From contig OZ245894.1 of the NCBI GenBank assembly GCA_965229635.1, positions 2,090,672 to 2,154,671 of the forward strand: a stretch of DNA of 64,000 nt, read 5' to 3'. The position numbers were made by a program, and so were the translations under genes. The notes under the pieces were generated by a model, which saw nothing but the letters and a program-made list of their open reading frames with translations, did no database searches and had not been told where the DNA came from. Shown one piece after another: positions 336 to 56,064 of this stretch; within the stretch, counting starts at the first letter, position 1, and each line of letters starts with the position of its first letter. Origin of the DNA: Saprospiraceae bacterium. Lineage in GTDB: Bacteria; Bacteroidota; Bacteroidia; Chitinophagales; Saprospiraceae.

Positions 336-779
336 TTAACGTTTTCGTTGGAAGAAATTGGTCATCAGATCACGGCATTGGTCCTCTAAAAAGCCGTACT
401 CTACCTTGGTTTTGGGGTGCAGTAATCTTTTGCCAAAACGCATAAAGCCACGTTTGTCATCGGCAGCACCATAAACGAGTCGGTCGAGCTGTGCCCAGGC
501 GAGGGCTCCGGCGCACATTACGCAAGGTTCGAGGGTGACATAGAGTGTGCAATCGGTGAGGTATTTGCTGTCGAGGAAATTGGCCGCAGCCGTCAATGCC
601 ACAATTTCTGCATGTGCAGTCACATCTTTGAATTGCTCCGTGTGATTATGGCCCCGGGCAATGATCTGGTTTTGGCTGACCACCACGGCACCCACTGGAA
701 CTTCGCCCAATTCAAAAGCGCGCTGCGCTTCCTTCAGGGCCTGCTGCATGAAGTAATCATCACTGTGAACGGATAACAT
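336..779 (-). CDS. tadA: tRNA-specific adenosine deaminase (CMP/dCMP deaminase zinc motifs HAE...PCxxC); start probably at internal Met (MLSVHSDDYFMQQAL)
   Basis: HAEIVAL and PCVMCAGAL motifs, ~150 aa core; the annotated ORF extends 20 codons upstream. Confidence 0.85.
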   Translation of the reverse strand: MLSVHSDDYFMQQALKEAQRAFELGEVPVGAVVVSQNQIIARGHNHTEQFKDVTAHAEIVALTAAANFLDSKYLTDCTLYVTLEPCVMCAGALAWAQLDRLVYGAADDKRGFMRFGKRLLHPKTKVEYGFLEDQCRDLMTNFFQRKR

Positions 780-857
780 AGGTGCAAAAATGAAAATAGG
801 AATCGGTTTTTGCAAGTGCCAACCGATTCCTATTTTCAAGGATTTTAAATTCCGGGC

Positions 858-2195
858 TTAGTTACAGCCCAAATCTTGCTTTGACTCGGGGTCGTTATTG
901 GGGAAGCAATTTCCGGAAAGCACCTCCTCGGGAACAAAGCGCTGCAGATTTGGATCGTGCAGTCCATCGCTGAGGAAGGCAACGAGCTGCTGAATTTCTA
1001 CAATGCTCATATCCAGTGGATGGAAAAAAGGAGAAATTTGCTCAGAAGGAACCCTTGGATTTTCCGGTTCCGCCTTATTGAAATAATCAACAACTCCCCA
1101 CAAGGTATTCTTGCTGCTTCCGTGGAAGTAGAAAGGCGAGTCCTTCATATTGTATAGCTGTGGGACCTTGAATTTATACATGTCCTCTGCCTTGCCGGTA
1201 AAGCCACCACGTCCGAAGTTGCGAATATCGTTTGGACCAGTATTTAATGCATCAACATCACAAAGGTCTCCCACGCCCAGTGCATGAAACTCCACGGAAC
1301 TCATTGCAGGACCCTTATGGCAGCGGTAGCATCCCGCTTTACCATAAAACAACAACGCTCCCTGCTTTTCCATTTCGGTCATCGCCTCATAATCTCCTTT
1401 TACCCATTTTTGGAAAGGTGCCTCGGTGGGCAATAGGGTGCGGAGGTAAGCAGAAAGCGCAAAGCTGGTAGTAACAGCGCCATAGCGTTCTTCCGGAGCA
1501 AAATCAGGAAATGCCTCATCAAACATGCTGCGGTAGCCCAGCGTGTCCAAAACATACTCGTCAATGCGCATCCGATGTAGATCCAGGCCTTCTATATTTT
1601 GGCTTTCAAGCCCTTGAAATCCATGATGGTTAGCCTCCGTGGTTTCATCTTCCGGTGTACCCCAGAGGTGTTCCGTGCCCTCATTAACATGAGTGGAGCC
1701 GAACTTGCCACTCCAGGTAGAATTGGTAACAAAGGCTACATTAAGCATGCTCAGGGCACGAGCGCCCTGTACGTCAAGTTCATCCTCGCCGTAAGTCATA
1801 TCCTGAGAGCGAAATTCTCCATTTTCACCAAAACCGGTACCGCCGTCGGCAATACCCTGTTTGCGTCCGGGCATAAATCCTGCGGACGGGACGTGACAAG
1901 AACTACACGAGTAGGTGCCTTTGCCTTGTTCGTATTTCGAGTCGCGAGCGATGCCCGTTTCAAAAAAAAGCATTTTGCCCAGTGCCACCTTTTCGGGTGT
2001 TAGTGGGTTTTGCGGATCTTGTGGAATATCGGCAAGATTATCACTTTCGGGAAGCTCAAAGTAATCGCGGTCACCGGTGGGTGCAATTCGCTTTAAGGTT
2101 TTATCGAGCGCGATATCTAAGGGGTCGATCAATCGATCCTTTGTACAAGCAAAAAACAAAACCCCCAGTAAAAACAGTAGTAGATTTTTTTTCAT
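858..2195 (-). CDS. di-haem cytochrome c peroxidase family protein, lipoprotein signal
   Basis: two CxxCH haem motifs (CSSCH, CYRCH), N-terminal signal peptide with Cys, length ~445 aa typical of CCP/MauG family. Confidence 0.8.
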   Translation of the reverse strand: MKKNLLLFLLGVLFFACTKDRLIDPLDIALDKTLKRIAPTGDRDYFELPESDNLADIPQDPQNPLTPEKVALGKMLFFETGIARDSKYEQGKGTYSCSSCHVPSAGFMPGRKQGIADGGTGFGENGEFRSQDMTYGEDELDVQGARALSMLNVAFVTNSTWSGKFGSTHVNEGTEHLWGTPEDETTEANHHGFQGLESQNIEGLDLHRMRIDEYVLDTLGYRSMFDEAFPDFAPEERYGAVTTSFALSAYLRTLLPTEAPFQKWVKGDYEAMTEMEKQGALLFYGKAGCYRCHKGPAMSSVEFHALGVGDLCDVDALNTGPNDIRNFGRGGFTGKAEDMYKFKVPQLYNMKDSPFYFHGSSKNTLWGVVDYFNKAEPENPRVPSEQISPFFHPLDMSIVEIQQLVAFLSDGLHDPNLQRFVPEEVLSGNCFPNNDPESKQDLGCN

Positions 2196-5906: not shown

Positions 5907-6161
5907 GTTCGTGAGTTTAGAGTGATTAATTTTTCTAAGAATCATTTCTTGTTCGTACTCTAATACCACATTCTGAAAAAGTACCCCCAAAAGGATTTGA
6001 AGTTTTTTTTGGTGGGCTCATTTTTAGCAGAAAGGGGGATTATTTTGCAAACTTGAGATGATCCTTTTGCGATAAGCGGACGATTCGCTATTTTCAGGGT
6101 TATTCGTAATCGAGGAGGTGTTTTCCGCAAGGATATTCACTTCTTCAGGAACAAAAAATTT

Positions 6162-14186: not shown

Positions 14187-14777
14187 CTACCCCCAAAGGA
14201 TTTTAAAAAAAGTTAAAAAAATCATAAAAAAAGTCAAAAAAGCGATTTTTCCCGTGCTCGAATCGGGTGTTTCCGGCCCATAAACCCTGGCCCGCAGCCG
14301 CTTCAGGGCGATGGTCATTTGATTTTCCACCGTTTTGACGGAAACCTCTAATCGTTCGGCAATTTCGCGGTTGGTCAGGTCTTCCTCCCGGCTCAGCAGG
14401 AAAATCTTTCGGCAGCGGTCCGGCAATGCATTGATTTCATCATAGATCAGTGCTTTCAGCTCTTCGGTTTGCAGCTTGCCCTCAATTTGCTGATCTTCAT
14501 AAGCCTCCGGAGTGGATTCATTCATTTCTACCGTTTCCAGCCGGCGCTTCCGCAGGTGATTGTAGCATTTATTGCGGGTAGCCGTAAACAAATATGCCTT
14601 CAACGATTCGTCCAGTTGCAGATTGTCCCGATTATTCCACACCGCCATGAATACATCCTGCACCACCTCGCGCGCATCCTCTGCCGAGTGTACAAACTGC
14701 CTGGCATAGCCCACCAGCACCGGTTGGAAGCGGTGAAAAATTTTTTCCAGTCCCTTTATTTGAGTGGAATGCGACAA
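14187..14777 (-). CDS. ECF-type RNA polymerase sigma-70 factor
   Basis: sigma-70 region 2 (VQDVFMAVWNNRDN...YLFTATRNKCYNHLRK) and region 4 (LSREEDLTNREIAERLEVSVKTVENQMTIALKRLR). Confidence 0.85.
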   Translation of the reverse strand: MSHSTQIKGLEKIFHRFQPVLVGYARQFVHSAEDAREVVQDVFMAVWNNRDNLQLDESLKAYLFTATRNKCYNHLRKRRLETVEMNESTPEAYEDQQIEGKLQTEELKALIYDEINALPDRCRKIFLLSREEDLTNREIAERLEVSVKTVENQMTIALKRLRARVYGPETPDSSTGKIAFLTFFMIFLTFFKILWG

Positions 14778-14841
14778 GTTTTTCTCTGATTTTGGCTGCT
14801 AATATAAGGAAGTATCAGCACAATTGTTTACAACTTGTTTT

Positions 14842-14942
14842 GGGCGTGTCCTCCCGGTCCAACCGGGAGGTCGGTCCCTTCCAGGCTCGCCATTCGGCTC
14901 GTCCCTAACGGGAGCTTCGCCCTTCCAGGCACCTCACGCGGG
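14842..14942 (+). ncRNA. candidate structured cis-regulatory RNA element (copy 1) in metH leader
   Basis: GC-rich segment with conserved cores gggcgug / aggucggucccuuccaggcucgccauucggcucgu / caggcaccucacgcggg shared with a second copy upstream of queA; closing helix gcgug-cacgc; variable hairpin insertions. Confidence 0.4.
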
Positions 14943-15012
14943 CTCCCTCTTGATAAAGACCGTAGCGATTGCGAATCGGTTGCAATCCAAAATCGTTACT
15001 TTTATCATCATG

Positions 15013-15062
15013 ATAAAAATAACGATTATAAATATCATCATTATTTTTATAACGATTTTTCA
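15013..15062 (+). terminator. putative attenuator/terminator hairpin with U-tract in metH leader
   Basis: 14-bp A/U stem auaaaaauaacgau / aucauuauuuuuau followed by aacgauuuuuca; compensatory changes in the queA copy; upstream alternative hairpin can sequester the 5' arm. Confidence 0.45.
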
Positions 15063-15226
15063 TGCCTCATTAAACAAAATTTATCAAACCGCTCCCTCAA
15101 TAGCATATTCCTCTGGAATTACCTAATTTTGCGCCAGCTCGACCAACCGAACCTAAAAAAAGACTGTTTTACATTTTAATTCAGGGGAACCATAACCTTT
15201 GTATACTCAATAAACTGATAGGGATC

Positions 15227-18200
15227 ATGACCAATAATATTTCCGACGCCTTACGTCAACGTATCCTGGTACTCGATGGTGCTATGGGAACAATGCTTCA
15301 ACGCTATAAACTTGACGAAGCAGGCTATCGGGGAGAGCGCTTCAAGGACTTCCACCGCGACATCAAAGGCAACAATGACCTACTGTCTATCACCCAGCCC
15401 AAGATCGTAGAAGATATCCATACCGCTTATCTCGAAGCAGGAGCAGATATTATCGAAACCAACAGCTTTACCGGTACCAGCATTGCTCAGGCCGATTATG
15501 ATATGCAGGATTTGGCCTATGAGATCAACCTGGAAGCTGCCAGAGTGGCGCGTCGGGCAGTCGACAAATTTCTGGAAAAACACCCAGGTGAGCAGCGCTG
15601 GGTGGCGGGATCTATTGGTCCTACTAATCGTACCGCCTCCATGTCGCCCGATGTCAATAATCCAGGCTACCGGGCCGTGACTTTTGATGAATTGAAAGAC
15701 GCATTTGGCGAGCAGACACGTGGCCTGATTGACGGAGGAGTGGATGTATTGCTGCTGGAGACGATCATTGACACACTGAATGTTAAAGCGGCACTCTTTG
15801 CGATTGATGAAATTAAAGAAGAGCGCAACCTGGATATTCCAGTCATCATCTCCGGAACGATTACTGATAGTAGCGGTCGTATTCTTAGTGGACAAACGGT
15901 TGAAGCCTTCTGGATTTCAGTGATGCACGCCCGACCACTTTGTGTAGGGCTCAACTGTGCCTTAGGAGCCAAGGAAATGCGTCCTCATCTGGAGGCCCTT
16001 TCCCGGATCGCTGATTGCTATGTACATGCCTATCCCAATGCCGGGTTGCCCAATGAATTTGGAGAATACGACCAGGAAGCAGAGGAAATGCGGGATTACA
16101 TCCGCGATTTTGCGGAAAGCGGCTTTGTCAACCTCATTGGCGGTTGTTGCGGCACCACACCCGACCATATCCGCGCCATGGCCGAAGCGGTAAAAGGAGT
16201 GACCCCACACCAAATTCCCGAGCAGCCACACTACACCATGCTCAGCGGGTTGGAGCCGTTGATCATTCGTCCCAATACCAATTTCGTGAATGTTGGTGAA
16301 CGGACAAACGTGACCGGGTCCAAGAAGTTTGCTCGTTTGATCAAGGAAGGTAATCTTAGCGAGGCCTTAAGCGTAGCCCAACATCAGGTGGAAGGAGGTG
16401 CCCAGATTATTGACATCAATATGGATGAAGGTCTGTTGGATTCCGAAAAGGCAATGGTGGAATTCCTCAATCTGCTCATGGCCGAGCCGGATATTGCCAA
16501 GTTGCCCATCATGATTGACTCCTCGAAGTGGAGTGTGATTGAAGCCGGACTAAAATGTGTGCAGGGTAAGTCGATCGTAAATTCCATTTCCCTCAAGGAA
16601 GGGGAGGAAAGTTTTATTCACCAGGCCAAACTGGTACGCCGCTATGGTGCGGCTGCAGTGGTCATGGCATTTGATGAAGTAGGACAGGCCGATACCATTG
16701 ACCGAAAGGTCAACATTTGCCAGCGGGCTTATAGAATTCTTACAAAACAGGTGGGATTCCGCCCCGAGGATATCATCTTTGATCCCAACATCTTTGCAGT
16801 AGCTACCGGGATTGAAGAACACAACGAATACGCCATTAACTTCATTGAAGCTACCCGCCAGATCAAGCAAAGCTGTCCAGGTGCAAAAGTCAGCGGCGGG
16901 GTCAGCAATATCTCTTTTTCTTTCCGGGGCAACAATGCCGTTCGGGAGGCTATGCACGCGGCCTTCTTGTATCACGCCATCCAGGCGGGAATGGATATGG
17001 GCATCGTCAATGCGGGCATGATTGAAGTATACGAGGAGATTCCAAAGGACCTGCTCGAAAGGGTAGAAGATGTATTGTTCAACCGACGCACCGATGCCAC
17101 CGAGCGGCTGACTGACTTTGCAGAAAGTCTGAAAGATACTGGAGGCAGAACGATTCAGAAAGATCTCGAATGGCGAAAAGGTACGGTGGAAGAGCGACTG
17201 AGTCATGCGCTGGTGCGTGGAATCACCGATTATGTCGATGAAGATACGGAAGAAGCCCGTCAGAAATACCCCTCGCCCTTGTCTGTCATTGAAGGGCCAC
17301 TAATGGATGGCATGAATATCGTTGGCGACCTCTTTGGCGCCGGAAAGATGTTTTTGCCCCAGGTGGTGAAAAGCGCCCGGGTAATGAAAAAGTCTGTGGC
17401 TATACTTACTCCGTATATCGAGGCCGAAAAGGCAGCTTCCGGCGATGTTAGTTCAAAAGGAAAAATCCTGTTGGCCACCGTGAAGGGTGATGTGCACGAT
17501 ATTGGTAAAAATATCGTCGGGGTCGTATTGGCCTGTAACAATTACGATATCGTCGATTTGGGTGTGATGGTGCCCGCCGAAAAAATCCTGGATGCGGCAC
17601 GCGAACACGAGGTCCAGGTGATTGGGCTTAGCGGGTTGATTACCCCATCACTGGATGAGATGGTTCATGTGGCCAGTGAAATGGAGCGTCAGGGGTTCAA
17701 ATTACCACTATTGATTGGCGGCGCTACGACTTCCAAAACCCATACCGCGGTCAAGGTAGAGCCGCAGTATTCCGGTCCGGTGGTGCACGTGCTTGACGCC
17801 TCACGGGCGGTATCGGTGGTGAGTTCGCTGATCGGTGGCGACGAGGATAGTCGCAGCAATTTCATTCTGGATACCCGAAAGGACTACGAGCGCGTTCGTG
17901 AACAGCGGGCCGGTCGTACCTCCCGTAAGAAATACCTGACCATTGAACAGGCTCGCGAAAATAAGGTGAAACTGGATTGGGATCAATTTACAGCGGTCAA
18001 ACCCAAGACCATGGGTATCCAAACCTTTGTGGATTACTCCGTTGAAGAGCTAACTGACTATATCGACTGGACGCCGTTCTTTACCAGTTGGCAGTTGGCC
18101 GGTAAATTTCCCGATATTTTGAAAGACGAGGTGGTGGGGCACGAGGCGCAAAAGCTTTACAACGACGCCCGCAGCATGTTGCGGCGCATCATTGACGAAA

Positions 18201-18907
18201 ACTGGCTCGAAGCCCGCGCCGTGATCGGTCTTTTTCCGGCCAACAGTATAGGTGATGACATTGAGATTTACGCTGATGAAAGCCGTACGGAAGTACTGCA
18301 AACGCTGCACCATTTGCGGCAGCAAAACCAAAAAGCTCCCGGATTACCCAATTACTGTCTGGCAGATTACATCGCTCCCAAAAGCAGCGGTAAGTCCGAC
18401 TATATTGGGGCCTTTGCCGTAACTGCCGGACACGGGATCGAATACTGGATTCAACATTTTCAACAGCAGCAGGATGATTATCAGGCCATCCTGCTTAAGG
18501 CCCTGGCCGACCGGTTGGCGGAGGCTTTGGCGGAGCGCATGCACCAGAGGGTTCGCAAGGAATTTTGGGCTTATGCCAATGATGAATGCCTGGAGAATGA
18601 TCAACTGATTGCAGAGGCATATAAAGGCATCCGTCCAGCTCCGGGCTATCCGGCTTGTCCCGAGCATACGGAGAAAGGCACGCTTTGGAAGTTGCTGGAT
18701 GTCGAAACACAGACTGGTATGATTTTAACCGACAGCTTTGCAATGTATCCAGCTTCATCCGTCAGTGGATGGTACCTGGCGCATCCGGAATCTCGGTATT
18801 TTGGTTTGGGTAAAATCAAGGAGGATCAGGTCGAGGATTACGCGGAACGCAAAGGCTTTACCATTGAGGAGGCCCGCCGGTGGTTATCGCCCGTCCTGGA
18901 TTCCTAA
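15227..18907 (+). CDS. metH: cobalamin-dependent methionine synthase
   Basis: 1226 aa with homocysteine-binding, pterin-binding, B12-binding ([14 protein letters not shown], DxHxxG) and AdoMet-activation domains. Confidence 0.97.
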
Positions 18908-22047: not shown

Positions 22048-24102
22048 TTAAATCCTGCTCCATCTTTGCACTTCCACACTTCCCCCCACATCTATTCGCA
22101 GCAGGTATGTTCCGCTGGGCAAGTCCGCGACGTTGATTTCCATGGGCTTGGCGTTGTTGATGGACTGCACTTGTCGCAGTGGCTGTCCGGTTATGGAAAA
22201 TATTTGGATGACTGTTGGGTGATCTGTTGGTTCATTGAAATGTAGGAAGATTACTTCAGTGGCTGGGTTGGGGAAGATCGAAACGGTGATTTTTTGTAGA
22301 TCGGTTCTTTCGGTATGGATGACCTTTGAATAGGTGTATTGGCCATCGTCATCAACCTGTTTTAGTCGGTAGTAGCTGGAGCCGGTTAGGGGATGGGAAT
22401 CCAGAAAGGTATAGATGTAAGGATCGGAGGTAGTGCCCTGACCGTCAATGACTCCAAGTTGTTGAAAGGTACGACCATCAGCGCTGCGCTCTATGGCAAA
22501 ATAGTCATTTTGCACTTCTGAGGCTGTTTCCCATTTTAGTAGGATACCCTCGGGTAGGTTTTTGGAGGTGAAATGGGTGAGCTCTACTGGAAGTACACCG
22601 CCACTGGCCACCGCAAAAGGTGACAGGCTGGTAATGCCGGAACGAGTAAACGTATACGGTGGCCCACCACTGGCGCTGCCCGTTGGGCCGGCATCCCAGT
22701 AGGTTCCGGTATAGTGGGCCATGTAGCAACTACTACGGTCAAAACCGCTGAGTTCCTGGGCGGAATTCCATTGTACAGTGAGGTTGAGCGAGCCATTGAC
22801 AGTGCCTTCGACATACCAGGTTCGGTTGACTATATTTGAAGATTGTTGCACCCCATTGTCATTGACCCAATCTTCGATGCGTACGCCAAAATTGCCGCTG
22901 CCGGTGTGTTGCAGAATAGCCGGATTGTACTGGTCATTACCGATGGGGAAGACCACACTACTGCTTACCGGTCGAATCAACATGCCCGAACTTTCTCCGA
23001 TGACGTTGGTTTGGATATAGCTTTGATTGTGAAATCCAGACAAGTCAGCCAGAACAGTAAGGTTGAAAGTATTGAGGGTAATTTTGCCTAACCCCATGGT
23101 CAGGTTGTTAACTTGTAACGCTCTAGCCAGGTTGAGTCCATTGCCGTTGAAAAGCGTGAGGTTATCAATCAGTATGGTCCCATTGCCGCTGATGGTCTGT
23201 GGCCCATTGCCGCCAATAGTCACGGAGGTCTCTTCACCGATAATAGCGAGTGTTCCCTCCACATTGATGCCGCCTTTAAAGTTGAAGCCAGAGCCAAAGG
23301 CCGTGCCCTGATTAGTGAGCGTGGAGCCAAAGCCAATCTGGGTCGCTCCATTTACCGCAATCGGGATGCCGCTGGTATTTTGATTGTAAATAACGACAGA
23401 ACCCCCTCCCGAAGTTCCGACATCCAAATTTCCGAGAACGGTTGCAGAACCACTAGAGCCTTGAAAACGACTGGAGCCAATGCCCGGATTCCAATTGTCG
23501 CCGGCGAAGTTTTCAAATCGCAAATTGGGGTAATAAGCCCCAATAGTAGTGATATTGGGGTCTCCGGCCCCGGTGTAGCGAATTACCCAATTGGCGGATG
23601 GAGGAATGGAAAACATACCTCCTTCATAGTTGTCGCGATATACCGAAGCACTGGAATTATTGCTCTTGATAAAGGTGCCATTTGAACCTAAATTCCAGGT
23701 TGCACCGCCCTGAAAGCGGGTGCCGTTGCCGGAACTGCCATTATCTTGGTAGCTGCCATTGACCACGAGATCAGAACCGGAGGCGGTATTGTAAAGGAAG
23801 AGTTCCAGGTCGGTATCAGCGAGGACGAGACTACCACCTGCTTCAATAACGATACTGCCTGCGTGCGCATTGTCAGAGAGGCCGCCGTCAATGTCGGTGA
23901 TATTGATGGTATGACCGGATTGGATGACCACATCGTCGGTGCTGCCGGGAGGATTGGTTGCGGTAGTCCAGGAGGAGGTAAAGACCTGCCAACTGCTGGC
24001 GACCATCCACGGTCCACTGGAGGCACTGCGATAGGAAGCCGCCATTAGAAGGGTTTCACAAATCAGAAAAAGCGCAAGGGTGAGTGTTGTTCTTGTTTTC
24101 AT
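22048..24102 (-). CDS. large secreted Gly/Asn-rich beta-helix-like protein with T9SS C-terminal sorting domain
   Basis: signal peptide (MKTRTTLTLALFLICETLLMAAS), C-terminal CTD (ITVSIFPNPATEVIFLHF...GTYLLRIDVGG); start at internal Met. Confidence 0.6.
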   Translation of the reverse strand: MKTRTTLTLALFLICETLLMAASYRSASSGPWMVASSWQVFTSSWTTATNPPGSTDDVVIQSGHTINITDIDGGLSDNAHAGSIVIEAGGSLVLADTDLELFLYNTASGSDLVVNGSYQDNGSSGNGTRFQGGATWNLGSNGTFIKSNNSSASVYRDNYEGGMFSIPPSANWVIRYTGAGDPNITTIGAYYPNLRFENFAGDNWNPGIGSSRFQGSSGSATVLGNLDVGTSGGGSVVIYNQNTSGIPIAVNGATQIGFGSTLTNQGTAFGSGFNFKGGINVEGTLAIIGEETSVTIGGNGPQTISGNGTILIDNLTLFNGNGLNLARALQVNNLTMGLGKITLNTFNLTVLADLSGFHNQSYIQTNVIGESSGMLIRPVSSSVVFPIGNDQYNPAILQHTGSGNFGVRIEDWVNDNGVQQSSNIVNRTWYVEGTVNGSLNLTVQWNSAQELSGFDRSSCYMAHYTGTYWDAGPTGSASGGPPYTFTRSGITSLSPFAVASGGVLPVELTHFTSKNLPEGILLKWETASEVQNDYFAIERSADGRTFQQLGVIDGQGTTSDPYIYTFLDSHPLTGSSYYRLKQVDDDGQYTYSKVIHTERTDLQKITVSIFPNPATEVIFLHFNEPTDHPTVIQIFSITGQPLRQVQSINNAKPMEINVADLPSGTYLLRIDVGGSVEVQRWSRI

Positions 24103-24103
24103 T

Positions 24104-24202
24104 CTAGTGGATTGATGCAGAAATAACTGACATTTAATGTTCAGCATCTTCAGTGCTTCTAGCGTGAAAAAAGTATCAACTATTTCGGACTAGTCGCACT
24201 AG
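24104..24202 (+). repeat. ~100-bp MITE-like repeat family B, copy 1 (ctagtg...cactag termini)
   Basis: near-identical copies at 54767-54864 and 55957-56064. Confidence 0.7.
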
Positions 24203-24484: not shown

Positions 24485-25705
24485 CTAGGGCAAAAGCAAA
24501 TTACTATCCCCATAGCTCAAAAAGCGGAAGTCTTCGGCCAGGGCATAGTCATAAATCTTATGCCAGTCATCTCCCACCAGTGCAGCTACGAGCAGCATGA
24601 GTGTGCTTTTTGGTTGGTGAAAATTGGTGATTAGTCCGCGAATCAGGCGGTACTGGTAGGAAGGTGCAATGAGTAGTTGGGTACTGCCCTCAAGCGTATC
24701 GAGGTGATGGTCAGTAAGATGCTGGATGACAGCTTGGAGGCATTCTTTTGCAGTTGGCCAGTCTTGATTTTCATACGGCAGCCACTGAGGCACTTCCATG
24801 TAGGTTTGGGCCGTGCCAGCGATGATCTGCGTACCGTGCCAGTAGATGCTTTCCAGTACCCGGCTGGCAGTCGTGCCCACCGTGATGATGGGCCGCTGAT
24901 CGAGTACTGCCTGAAGAAGCGTTTGTAGTGTTTCTTTATTAATAGCTACCGTCTCTGAGTGCATGTGGTGCTCACCAAGGGTAGGGGTGCTAACCGGCTT
25001 AAAGGTCCCTGCTCCAACGTGCAGGGTAAGAAAAGTGCGACTGATGCCCTTGGACTCCAAGTCTTCAAAAACCCGGTCGGTGAAGTGCAATCCGGCAGTA
25101 GGCGCCGCTACCGAACCTTCGTGATGCGCGTAGATGGTTTGGTAGCGATGCACATCATCGGCGGTGCTTTCGCGCTTGAGGTAGGGTGGGAGTGGGATAA
25201 TGCCGCCTTCGGCCAGTAGTTCTCCAAAGGATAGGTTGGTATCTGGCCACTGAAAGCGGATATCAAAGGCATTTTCATTGCGGCCCAGTCGCTCGATGTG
25301 TAGCGGGATGTTTTTTTGGCTTAAAGCCAAATGCGTATCGATTACCCCGGTCTTCCACTTGCGGTTGTTGCCTACAAGGCACTTCCAGGTGACTTCTTCG
25401 GTTGCCGAAAGATTTTGCTGATATTCGGCGGGTCGCAGTGGTTCCAGGCACAGGATTTCAATCTGGGCGCCGGAGGGTAAGGTGAAGCGCAAACGGGCGT
25501 GGATTACCCGCGTATCATTGAAGACGAGCAGACTATTTTCCGGAAGGAAATCTCCAATATTCCGGAAGGTTGAAGAGGAGATTTGCCCCCCTTGGTAAAC
25601 CAATAACTTAGAGGCGTCCCTTTCTTCCAGTGGGAAGCGGGCGATGCGGTGATCGGGTAGATCGTAGCTATAATCCTCGATGTTAATTGCTGCTGGCGTC
25701 TGCAT
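24485..25705 (-). CDS. queA: S-adenosylmethionine:tRNA ribosyltransferase-isomerase
   Basis: N-terminus DYSYDLPDHRIARFPLEERDASKLLVY...LLVFNDTRVIHARL matches the QueA family, C-terminal FRFLSYGD. Confidence 0.9.
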   Translation of the reverse strand: MQTPAAINIEDYSYDLPDHRIARFPLEERDASKLLVYQGGQISSSTFRNIGDFLPENSLLVFNDTRVIHARLRFTLPSGAQIEILCLEPLRPAEYQQNLSATEEVTWKCLVGNNRKWKTGVIDTHLALSQKNIPLHIERLGRNENAFDIRFQWPDTNLSFGELLAEGGIIPLPPYLKRESTADDVHRYQTIYAHHEGSVAAPTAGLHFTDRVFEDLESKGISRTFLTLHVGAGTFKPVSTPTLGEHHMHSETVAINKETLQTLLQAVLDQRPIITVGTTASRVLESIYWHGTQIIAGTAQTYMEVPQWLPYENQDWPTAKECLQAVIQHLTDHHLDTLEGSTQLLIAPSYQYRLIRGLITNFHQPKSTLMLLVAALVGDDWHKIYDYALAEDFRFLSYGDSNLLLP

Positions 25706-25780
25706 AATCCTTCAATTTCGCTGCAAAAATAGGATTTTTCCGGATTGTGGGAATATAGGGAAGGTTTAGGTTGAAAAATC

Positions 25781-25830
25781 GTTACAAATATAATGATGAT
25801 AAAAATAATCATTATATTTGTCATCGTGTT
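25781..25830 (-). terminator. putative attenuator/terminator hairpin with U-tract in queA leader
   Basis: 14-bp stem acaaauauaaugau / aucauuauauuugu then aacgauuuuuca; covaries with the metH-leader hairpin. Confidence 0.45.
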
Positions 25831-25902
25831 AAAAGTTATTATTGTATAGACATTGGTTTTAATTTTCCTCACCGCTTTTCATCATCCACTGCGCCCGCGT
25901 GA

Positions 25903-26030
25903 GGTGCCTGCAAGGGGAAGGCCTGCGGCCGCCCCTGCCCACCGAAGCCTCCAGGCGAAGGTGGGTACGAGCCGAATGGCGAGCCTGGAAGGGACCGACC
26001 TGACGAAGGAAGGGCACGCCCAAAATACCT
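25903..26030 (-). ncRNA. candidate structured cis-regulatory RNA element (copy 2) in queA leader
   Basis: same three conserved cores and closing helix as 14842-14942, inverted orientation, different variable hairpins. Confidence 0.4.
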
Positions 26031-54567: not shown

Positions 54568-54766
54568 ATTTGATATAAAATTAATTGATATCATTAAAAG
54601 AAATACTTAACTTGCACATCACTTCAGGAATTTGTTCCTGTACTACAGTCAAACACCACTCAATAACTTTCCCACAAGCCGATCTATTGAATAGTTTCAA
54701 GCGCTATTTCCGTAAGTAGTTTTAAGTTTTTTCATTCCCCCCCTTTTTGGCATCATGTTTGGACGC

Positions 54767-54864
54767 CAGTGGATTGATGCAGAAATAATTGACATTTAAT
54801 GTTCAGCATCTTCAATGCTTCTAGCCTGAAAAAAGTATCAACTATTTCGGACTAGTCGCACTAG
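54767..54864 (+). repeat. MITE-like repeat family B, copy 2
   Basis: ~95% identical to 24104-24202. Confidence 0.7.
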
Positions 54865-55720: not shown

Positions 55721-55956
55721 CCTTTACCATTCACCCAGAGGCTTGCTACTCATCCCTCTGGCTTGCCATTGGCCCCAGGTTTTTGGTGGTAATCCCTCAT
55801 TTCTGCGGCCTATTTGCCGGATCTATACATTTGTTGAAAAAAGAATCCGGTTATGAAAATTCCGACGATGTCAGCCTGTATGGAGCTGGAGGTTGCTTAT
55901 TAAACTACAAAAGCCCCAGGCAGTGGCTGGTCTGCTGGGGCCTTTGTAGTGTGCAA

Positions 55957-56064
55957 CTAGTGGATTGATGCAGAAATAATTGATATCTAATGTTCAGCAT
56001 CATCAATGCTTCTAGCCTGAAAAAAGTATCAACTATTTCGGACTAGTCGCACGAGTCGCACTAG
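55957..56064 (+). repeat. MITE-like repeat family B, copy 3 (with internal cgcacgagtcgcactag duplication)
   Basis: seen directly. Confidence 0.7.

Follow-up and report, generated by a model that had tools for sequence, protein, structure and literature searches.

The 64,000-nt stretch of Saprospiraceae DNA analysed here (the window, 47.4% G+C) contains two copies of a structured intergenic element, one near metH and the other near queA. Copy 1 (W1, 14842-15062) consisted of a 104-nt segment of 70% G+C, a spacer and a 77-nt tail of 19% G+C. It was flanked by a divergent extracytoplasmic function (ECF) sigma-factor gene (14187-14777, minus strand) and by metH (15227-18907), and its GC-rich part stopped 282 nt short of the metH ATG at 15227. 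Copy 2 (W2) spanned about 26025-25772, on the minus strand in the orientation of the initial annotation, which had read copy 1 on the plus strand. It lay upstream of queA (24485-25705, minus strand) and began 8 nt past the stop codon of a peptide deformylase gene. The initial annotation had described a leader shared by the two genes, of about 65% G+C in a genome of about 48%, located 285 nt from metH. The GC-richness was confirmed, and the three values are replaced by those measured here.

The two copies shared long identical blocks. The 35-mer AGGTCGGTCCCTTCCAGGCTCGCCATTCGGCTCGT stood without any difference at 14868-14902 (+) and at 25967-26001 (-), and shuffled sequences gave an expectation of 0 matches. 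The 17-mer CAGGCACCTCACGCGGG was present exactly at 14926-14942 (+) and 25894-25910 (-), which was also not expected by chance. TTTTGGGCGTG and TAACGATTTTTCA were common to both copies as well, and the tails, about 80% identical, both terminated in TAACGATTTTTCA. These matches bore out the description of two copies with common conserved cores, and the differing hairpins reported at matching positions between the cores were present in both. Searches with nhmmer and with a covariance model (filters off) gave a count of two copies in the window.

The 14-bp A/U hairpin that had been placed about 71 nt downstream was also present. It differed between the copies by a U-A to C-G swap, an A-U to U-A swap and one repaired mismatch. 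The upstream segment of copy 1 could form the alternative hairpin proposed for it, and this was the minimum-energy fold. The AT-rich tail was found in W1, W2 and, in part, the orthologous copy L097a only; all other members lacked it. It belongs to the three copies of this genus and moved, or was retained, with the core as a longer unit. In L097a the hairpin was present in a different register, AACGAUUUUUCA reading AACGAUUAUUGC, and the U-tract was lost. The other copies had no consistent T run. The hairpin was therefore not a conserved terminator as had been suggested.

Family members in other genomes

Exact-core scans, with a 22-mer against genome contigs and a 20-mer against metagenome contigs, gave no match in either collection, neither of which includes the host genome. 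Looking up the exact QueA protein likewise returned no record. A QueA-based scan led to one close relative, a Saprospiraceae metagenome-assembled genome (MAG; L001, QueA 84%). This sister MAG carried three members: one upstream of metH, one 26 nt past a beta-lactamase gene, and one directly upstream of the queA promoter. The first hairpin of the beta-lactamase-adjacent copy differed from that of copy 1 by a compensatory change. The member upstream of queA was in the opposite orientation and belonged to subtype A', the corresponding window copy being of subtype B.

A degenerate pattern derived from four copies, from the window and the sister MAG, was scanned against metagenome contigs. Eleven distinct true copies were recovered in contigs of 34-45% G+C, together with obvious false positives in high-GC coding DNA. 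Two of the metagenome hosts could be assigned to the Bacteroidota, one through its GalE relatives and the other through a Por_Secre_tail protein. With one more copy contributed by the relative L100, about 15 copies were found beyond the window, and about 17 members are known in all. Subtype B was made up of the window copies, L001b and L088, with co-varying differences.

On the strand of the initial annotation, the consensus read GGGCGUG plus 1 nt, a variable hairpin, GUCGCUAYG plus 6 nt, GGCUCG(C/U)UAUUC(G/A)CUCGGCC, one to three variable hairpins, the complement of the bases preceding GGCUCG, and CAUCGCUCACGC. One member (L084 330-440) had an AT-rich insertion of about 90 nt in a variable hairpin, with the closing pairs GCCGCTC/GAGCGGC retained.

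A covariance model built from subtype-A copies of other genomes matched W1 over its full length (38.2 bits, E 5.6e-06, filters off). It also recovered every other known member, and found nothing else in the window besides W1 and W2. Rfam 15 gave no match at gathering score in the window or in 12 element-bearing loci, except one tRNA, in agreement with the earlier statement that the element matches none of a set of riboswitch consensus sequences (SAM-I, SAM-II, SAH, B12, THF, ZTP and guanidine). In E-value mode it gave only noise at the element positions (E up to 10). A literature search with sequence strings returned no relevant papers, and a keyword search returned only general background on repetitive extragenic palindromic (REP) sequences, MITEs (miniature inverted-repeat transposable elements) and the discovery of non-coding RNA. 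The family is new to the searched databases, is not in Rfam 15, and is supported by covariation.

The family pattern had 0 matches in viral contigs. Six viral-contig loci with the 17-nt core were rejected, as they gave partial, weak model matches (E 0.04-0.24), lacked helices P1 and P2 (described below), and were as numerous as expected by chance for a 17-mer. When the covariance model was run over QueA loci of other Bacteroidota and Firmicutes, about 1.2 Mb in total, no copy was detected, nor was there any in 95 kb of four other Saprospiraceae loci (24 kb each, MetH about 76% identical). The element was not upstream of queA in 74 QueA loci. Readings of the element as tRNA-like, 5S-like, SRP-like, attC-like or an inverton were dropped because the defining motifs were absent and Rfam gave no match.

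Consensus fold and favoured strand

RNAalifold on the reverse complement of the annotated strand gave a coherent structure, made up of P1, a stacked helix GCGAUGU/ACGUAGC, P3, a 2-bp mini-hairpin around GAAUA, and P2. The stacked helix was built from stretches formerly taken for single-stranded junctions. On the annotated strand RNAalifold gave an uninformative structure, and single-sequence folding was no better than for shuffles.

The consensus structure was scored on alignment A6 against 500 shuffles and slid controls. Paired cells amounted to 93.6%, compared with 80.8% in the shuffles (0/500 as good) and 29-59% in the slid controls. Ten pairs were changed on both sides, compared with 5.2 in the shuffles (0/500), and the covariation score was 0.403 versus 0.148 (0/500).

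Changes were also seen in the single helices. The P1 arms were identical in all but one of the 17 copies, intact or partial, and in L100 both arms were changed together (GGGGCCUA/UAGUCC). The P2 position held different complementary stems (CCCCCGG/CCGGGGG, CCTCGGC/GCCGAGG, CCCCCAC/GTGGGGG, CCATCTT/AAGATGG and CCCCGC/GCGGGG). Helix P3, next to GCUCG, was represented by at least six complementary sequences (GGGUG/CACCC, GGAGG/CCUCC, GUGG/CCAC, AUAG/CUAU, AGGG/CCCU and GGGG/CCCC). The mini-hairpin pair covaried between subtypes, being C-G in eight copies and U-A in two, and a G/C swap was seen in the inner helix (UCGGU...GCACC versus UCGCU...GCAGC in L001b). The stems were almost purely Watson-Crick.

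These comparisons showed a modelled core fold in which P1 (GCGUG/CACGC) closes a three-way junction with the variable P2, and a stacked helix leads to an inner loop and one to three variable hairpins. The inner loop had the invariant sequence GGCCGAGCGAAUAGCGAGC, or GAGCCGAAUGGCGAGCC in the subtype of the window. The conserved structured element with this closing helix and variable peripheral stems, as initially described, was thus supported by family-wide covariation.

The strand of the initial annotation did not fare so well. Its reverse complement was more stable in 15/15 copies, with a mean difference of 6.4 kcal/mol, and had the better dinucleotide-shuffle z-score in 14/15 (mean -1.65 versus -0.36). 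The consensus structure contained nine G-U cells on the reverse, favoured strand versus two A-C cells (G-U on the other strand), six of the nine sharing one column and perhaps not being independent. Should the element function as RNA or single-stranded DNA, the predicted folds favour the minus strand as the active strand of copy 1, and RNA from this copy would therefore point away from metH.

Gene context, turnover and interpretation

The genes flanking the copies encoded peptide deformylase (pdf), beta-lactamase, M1 peptidase, NUDIX, GalE, DUF2589, CysZ, PCMT, phosphoglucomutase, ABC ATPase, acyl-CoA dehydrogenase, a response regulator and others. No protein family recurred in three or more element-bearing loci. 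Among 12 classifiable loci, the genes on either side were convergent in six, tandem in four and divergent in two, and several copies lay 0-41 nt from a neighbouring stop codon.

Signals for transcription of the element itself were not consistent. The Bacteroidota -7 promoter consensus is TAnnTTTG. This box, the only promoter consensus covered, was found within 160 nt upstream in just one of 17 copies, on either strand. T runs were sporadic, with no consistent run at the copies on either strand. An own promoter and intrinsic terminator at conserved distances, as expected of a stand-alone small RNA, were not seen.

The genes next to the window copies had boxes of their own. The metH box (15124-15131) and the queA box (25724-25731) were both downstream of their elements. 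An equivalent TAnnTTTG-type box was present upstream of metH in L097, L100, L102, L103, L105 and L106. In the four other Saprospiraceae among these relatives the box (CTACCTTTG in L102) lay within 250 nt before the metH start codon. Neither at metH nor at queA was the element situated between promoter box and start codon on the strand of the gene, the position of a riboswitch.

The occurrence of the element differed among close relatives. L100 has a MetH 85% identical to that of the window and the same order of TonB-receptor, FecR, sigma-factor and metH genes. Only 186 nt separated sigma and metH in this relative, and this stretch contained neither the GC-rich element nor the AT-rich tail; a promoter-proximal block, ttcctatggaattgcctaattttgcc, was retained. 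In all, the element was not upstream of metH in five relatives (L100 and four further Saprospiraceae). The metH copy of the sister species (L097) was without the central core, having CCCTTCCGTATTCGGCATGCG instead of CCCTTCCAGGCTCGCCATTCGGCTCGT. L100 bore a subtype-A copy at an intergenic site with no element in either the window or L097. Between divergent TonB-receptor and BNR/sortilin genes, the window (5978-6050) and L097 (700-745) had a hairpin (ACCCCCAAAAGG...TTTTTTTTGG..GGGGG) similar to a bidirectional terminator, and L100 had a family copy in its place.

At a GalE/rhomboid locus, the elements of L083 and L091 were 99% identical (108/109), compared with 93% and 88% for the flanks. This identity indicates constraint or homogenisation. 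L107-110 (GalE 78%) had a decayed copy at the same site, 64% identical like its flanks and with the invariant blocks mutated. Together these loci showed that copies occur in any kind of intergenic region and are gained, lost or decayed between close relatives.

These observations decide the question of a riboswitch. The initial annotation had taken the plus strand for a 5' leader sensing a metabolite of the S-adenosylmethionine (SAM) cycle and controlling metH and queA through a terminator/antiterminator switch at the A/U hairpin. The architecture is aptamer-like, in that a helix closes it, the junctions are conserved and the stems vary, with support from covariation; the window copies are upstream of MetH and QueA; the A/U hairpin differs between them by compensatory changes; and the sister species has kept the metH copy. 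The other copies, however, stand beside unrelated, often convergent, genes, so the reading fails: the copies were not tied to one pathway or to any gene class across genomes, an outcome that the initial annotation itself had named as refuting. Five Saprospiraceae have no element before metH, the sister's metH copy has lost the central core, and its queA-proximal copy is inverted and of another subtype. No conserved expression platform was found, since hairpin register and U-tract are not kept in L097a; the element lies upstream of the conserved promoter boxes; and the opposite strand is favoured. The element is not a leader of metH, and the riboswitch or leader reading is refuted, the chance that it holds after all being very slight. 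This removes a false riboswitch candidate.

We instead interpreted W1, with a probability of roughly one half, as a copy of an uncatalogued family of structured intergenic sequences of 100-210 nt, found in Saprospiraceae and other low-GC Bacteroidota and dispersed in the manner of REP sequences, bacterial interspersed mosaic elements (BIMEs) or MITEs. This reading was preferred because there are several copies and subtypes per genome, in any intergenic context, with gain, loss and decay, without transcription signals of their own, and with Watson-Crick stems and conserved junctions. Since metH and queA are syntenic neighbours and the window has another repeat family (described below), the presence of two copies beside SAM-related genes is best read as coincidence. 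The two genes share the element as neighbours in a repeat-bearing genome, not through co-regulation.

How such a family might operate can be proposed. The conserved junction sequences and Watson-Crick stems would be recognition features for a spreading or homogenising agent, and recognition would take place on the strand 5'-GCGUGAG...CACGCCC-3' in a single-stranded nucleic-acid form. Once inserted, the element would ride passively on neighbouring transcripts, in which its compact GC-rich fold might at most be a 3'-end barrier or insulator. A longer unit, consisting of core, spacer and AT-rich palindrome, was duplicated in this genus; one copy came to lie upstream of the promoter of metH, the other upstream of that of queA.

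REP, BIME and REPIN sequences, which are mobilised by RAYT/TnpA-REP, are likewise GC-rich, structured, extragenic and multi-copy, often at 3' ends or between convergent genes. They also have covarying stems, conserved short flanking motifs and several subfamilies per genome, and are patchy among relatives. In a REP or REPIN, a GTAG/GTGG tetranucleotide stands 0-2 nt 5' of the foot of a short GC-rich hairpin. Such sequences number tens to hundreds in a genome, and some of them lie on either side of a cognate RAYT gene. On the favoured strand of the present element, GUAG stood 3 nt before P2 in six of 10 subtype-A copies and AUAG in three of 10; subtype B, to which the window copies belong, had GGGACCGACC. 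However, REPs are single hairpins of 21-65 nt with species-specific sequence, whereas this element is a multi-branch fold of 100-210 nt with about 45 invariant junction nucleotides common to distant hosts, and no RAYT gene was seen near any copy.

The MITE-like ERIC/IRU, BOX and Correia/NEMIS repeats resemble it in being 100-200 nt long, intergenic, co-transcribed with neighbours, modular with variable insertions, and polymorphic in presence and absence. Those repeats are bounded by long terminal inverted repeats and, in many cases, by target-site duplications. The terminal complementarity here was 5-7 bp, less than the 10 bp or more of MITE terminal inverted repeats. No target-site duplication could be made out when occupied and empty sites were aligned, the flanks being too diverged. 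The internal helices of this element, moreover, show compensatory change and not simple sequence identity. Riboswitch aptamers share the closing P1, invariant junction nucleotides and variable peripheral hairpins, but not the lack of a 5'-untranslated position, of a common gene class and of a conserved expression platform. Scattered bacterial self-cleaving ribozymes (hammerhead, twister, HDV-like) are similar in their compact junction folds with few invariant nucleotides, in their varied contexts and orientations, and in having no gene association. They differ in that no Rfam ribozyme model matched at E up to 10 and that the invariant sequences are unlike known catalytic cores.

In Bacteroidetes, TnpA-Y1 subclass 2.6 genes are reported to have at their flanks atypical secondary structures that recur elsewhere in the genome (PMC6006769). 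Several points speak against the dispersed-repeat interpretation. No mobilising enzyme was found, and no Y1 transposase in any element-bearing locus; no exact insertion boundary could be defined for the same reason of flank divergence. The local density was two copies in 64 kb and three in the sister's orthologous region, a biased figure, as the window was chosen for its two copies. The core is conserved across hosts with proteins 35-61% identical, more broadly than in typical species-specific REP families. The L083/L091 copy appears to be under constraint, and the fold is strand-asymmetric in stability, z-score and G-U versus A-C cells. A functional RNA accounts for the last two points equally well as selfish DNA does, or better. 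Together with the broad conservation, they mean that an independent functional RNA has to be taken seriously as a rival.

Under this rival, the family would comprise independent small structured RNAs of the strand 5'-GCGUGAG...CACGCCC-3', protein-binding, catalytic (such as a new self-cleaving ribozyme) or trans-acting, with several individually dispensable paralogues. We regard it tentatively, as a possibility of lower probability than a dispersed repeat. It would explain the strong covariation, the invariance of the junction nucleotides across distant hosts, the strand asymmetry in stability and z-score, the U-G pairs whose opposite-strand counterparts would be A-C, and the purifying selection in the L083/L091 lineage; a context and orientation independent of the neighbours is typical for scattered ribozymes and small RNAs. 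In W1, W2 and L097a the AT-rich block is upstream on the favoured strand, and that of W2 has a TATATTTG box 74 nt before the RNA. Yet a promoter box was found in one of 17 copies and no consistent terminator in any, several copies are within 41 nt of a neighbouring stop codon, orthologous copies are decayed or absent in close relatives, and G-U pairs are rare for a natural RNA. Somewhat more doubtful is the proposal of a new class of functional structured RNA of the Bacteroidota, made from the strand opposite to the annotated one in several dispersed copies per genome, whose junction nucleotides would be a catalytic (self-cleaving) or protein-binding core.

The favoured strand of copy 1 is directed at the sigma-factor gene, its core ending 65 nt before the start of that open reading frame at 14777. 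The minus strand could then be a cis-acting leader of the divergent ECF sigma/FecR/TonB-receptor operon, with the AT-rich palindrome, which looks like a Fur-box-like operator by its sequence, as the operator or promoter region. L097 has the same arrangement, and on the favoured strand the L100 copy precedes a TonB-dependent receptor gene by about 57 nt. We consider this leader unlikely, as the sigma/FecR/receptor operon is present in L100 with no element beside it, the majority of copies are directed, on the favoured strand, at a convergent gene's 3' end, copy 2 has no downstream gene on that strand, and the other genes downstream on it are PCMT and queA.

Whichever of these readings applies, a structured family of about 17 members with a working covariance model is now defined, and is a concrete target for genome-wide surveys. 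Such surveys could tell whether the Bacteroidota own a REP-like system or an unrecognised class of small RNA or ribozyme. The family is of moderate relevance for those who catalogue bacterial structured RNAs and repeats.

Feature coordinates and neighbouring sequences

The positions of the features in the window are listed in Table 1.

Table 1. Features of the two element copies and of the adjacent promoters, in window coordinates
Feature	Position	Strand	Basis and remarks
Copy 1 (W1), structured GC-rich core, subtype B	14841..14941	- (favoured folded/RNA strand, 5'-GCGUGAGG...CACGCCC-3'; initial annotation used +)	Covariance-model match; 70% G+C
P1 closing helix, arm GCGTG (on +)	14844..14848		Pairs with 14935-14939
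P1 closing helix, other arm CACGC (on +)	14935..14939		Pairs with 14844-14848
P2 hairpin, CCTCCCGG tccaa CCGGGAGG	14850..14870		Length and sequence vary among copies; base always CC/GG
35-nt core identical in both window copies	14868..14902		Invariant blocks GGTCG, GCTCG, ATTC; mini-hairpin GCC-ATTC-GGC at 14889-14898
Inner helix, arm GGTCCCT	14873..14879		Pairs with AGGCACC, one central mismatch; subtype-B counterpart of the P1-stacked helix; minus-strand fold and model alignment
Inner helix, partner arm AGGCACC	14927..14933		Minus-strand fold and model alignment
Spacer, core to tail	14946..14985		Not conserved between window copies (alignment)
AT-rich palindromic tail of copy 1, ending TAACGATTTTTCA	14986..15062		19% G+C; conserved block TTTTATCATSATKATWTTTRTAACGATTWTT; hairpin partner register differs between copies
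TAnnTTTG box TAATTTTG, likely metH promoter	15124..15131	+	Only such box in the sigma/metH intergenic region; downstream of element
Copy 2 (W2), structured core, subtype B	25895..26022	+	Full-length covariance-model match, 36.3 bits, E 1.4e-05
AT-rich tail of copy 2, 14-bp palindrome ACAAATATAATGAT/ATCATTATATTTGT	25772..25850		Sequence, alignment, fold
-7-type box TATTTTTG upstream of queA	25724..25731	-	Kept in L001 despite different-subtype, opposite-orientation element there; 26 nt identical to L001 6037-6062

The AT-rich palindromes at 14986-15062 and 25772-25850 resemble Fur-box-like operators in sequence, for example TATAATGATTATTTTTATC in copy 2, and copy 1 adjoins the ECF sigma/FecR/TonB-receptor operon. 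A block just ahead of and across the metH start codon (caaactgatagggatyatgac) was conserved in the three closest genomes, at 15195-15229 of the window, 9980-10003 of L097 and 9985-10003 of L100. It may be a translation-initiation signal or a real 5'-untranslated-region signal of metH.

In another member of the Saprospiraceae (L105 10001-14935, GCA_964419545.1), queA followed metH after a gap of 9 nt, as if the two formed one operon. The genes are therefore tied by the gene order of the lineage, independently of the element. A Y1 transposase of 153 aa (PF01797) was encoded at 739-1200 (-) of L103, a Saprospiraceae genome with no family copy in the 24 kb covered.

A stretch of L001 (1960-2110), poorly coding and situated between the beta-lactamase gene and a 1022-aa gene, contained a tandemly duplicated unit of about 66 nt (gagcgatttccgacgcaaaaggaatgaaagtccagtggactttcaagcgagtgaaccgccagcgggtgggtcagccga). 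At this place the window carries the deformylase gene instead.

A second, unrelated family of intergenic repeats was present in the window at 24091-24202, 54753-54864 and 55944-56055. Its copies were about 100 nt long and 86-92% identical, with CTAGTG...CACTAG termini, an internal GCATC..GATGC-like hairpin, no Rfam match and a MITE-like look. This genome thus carries dispersed repeats.

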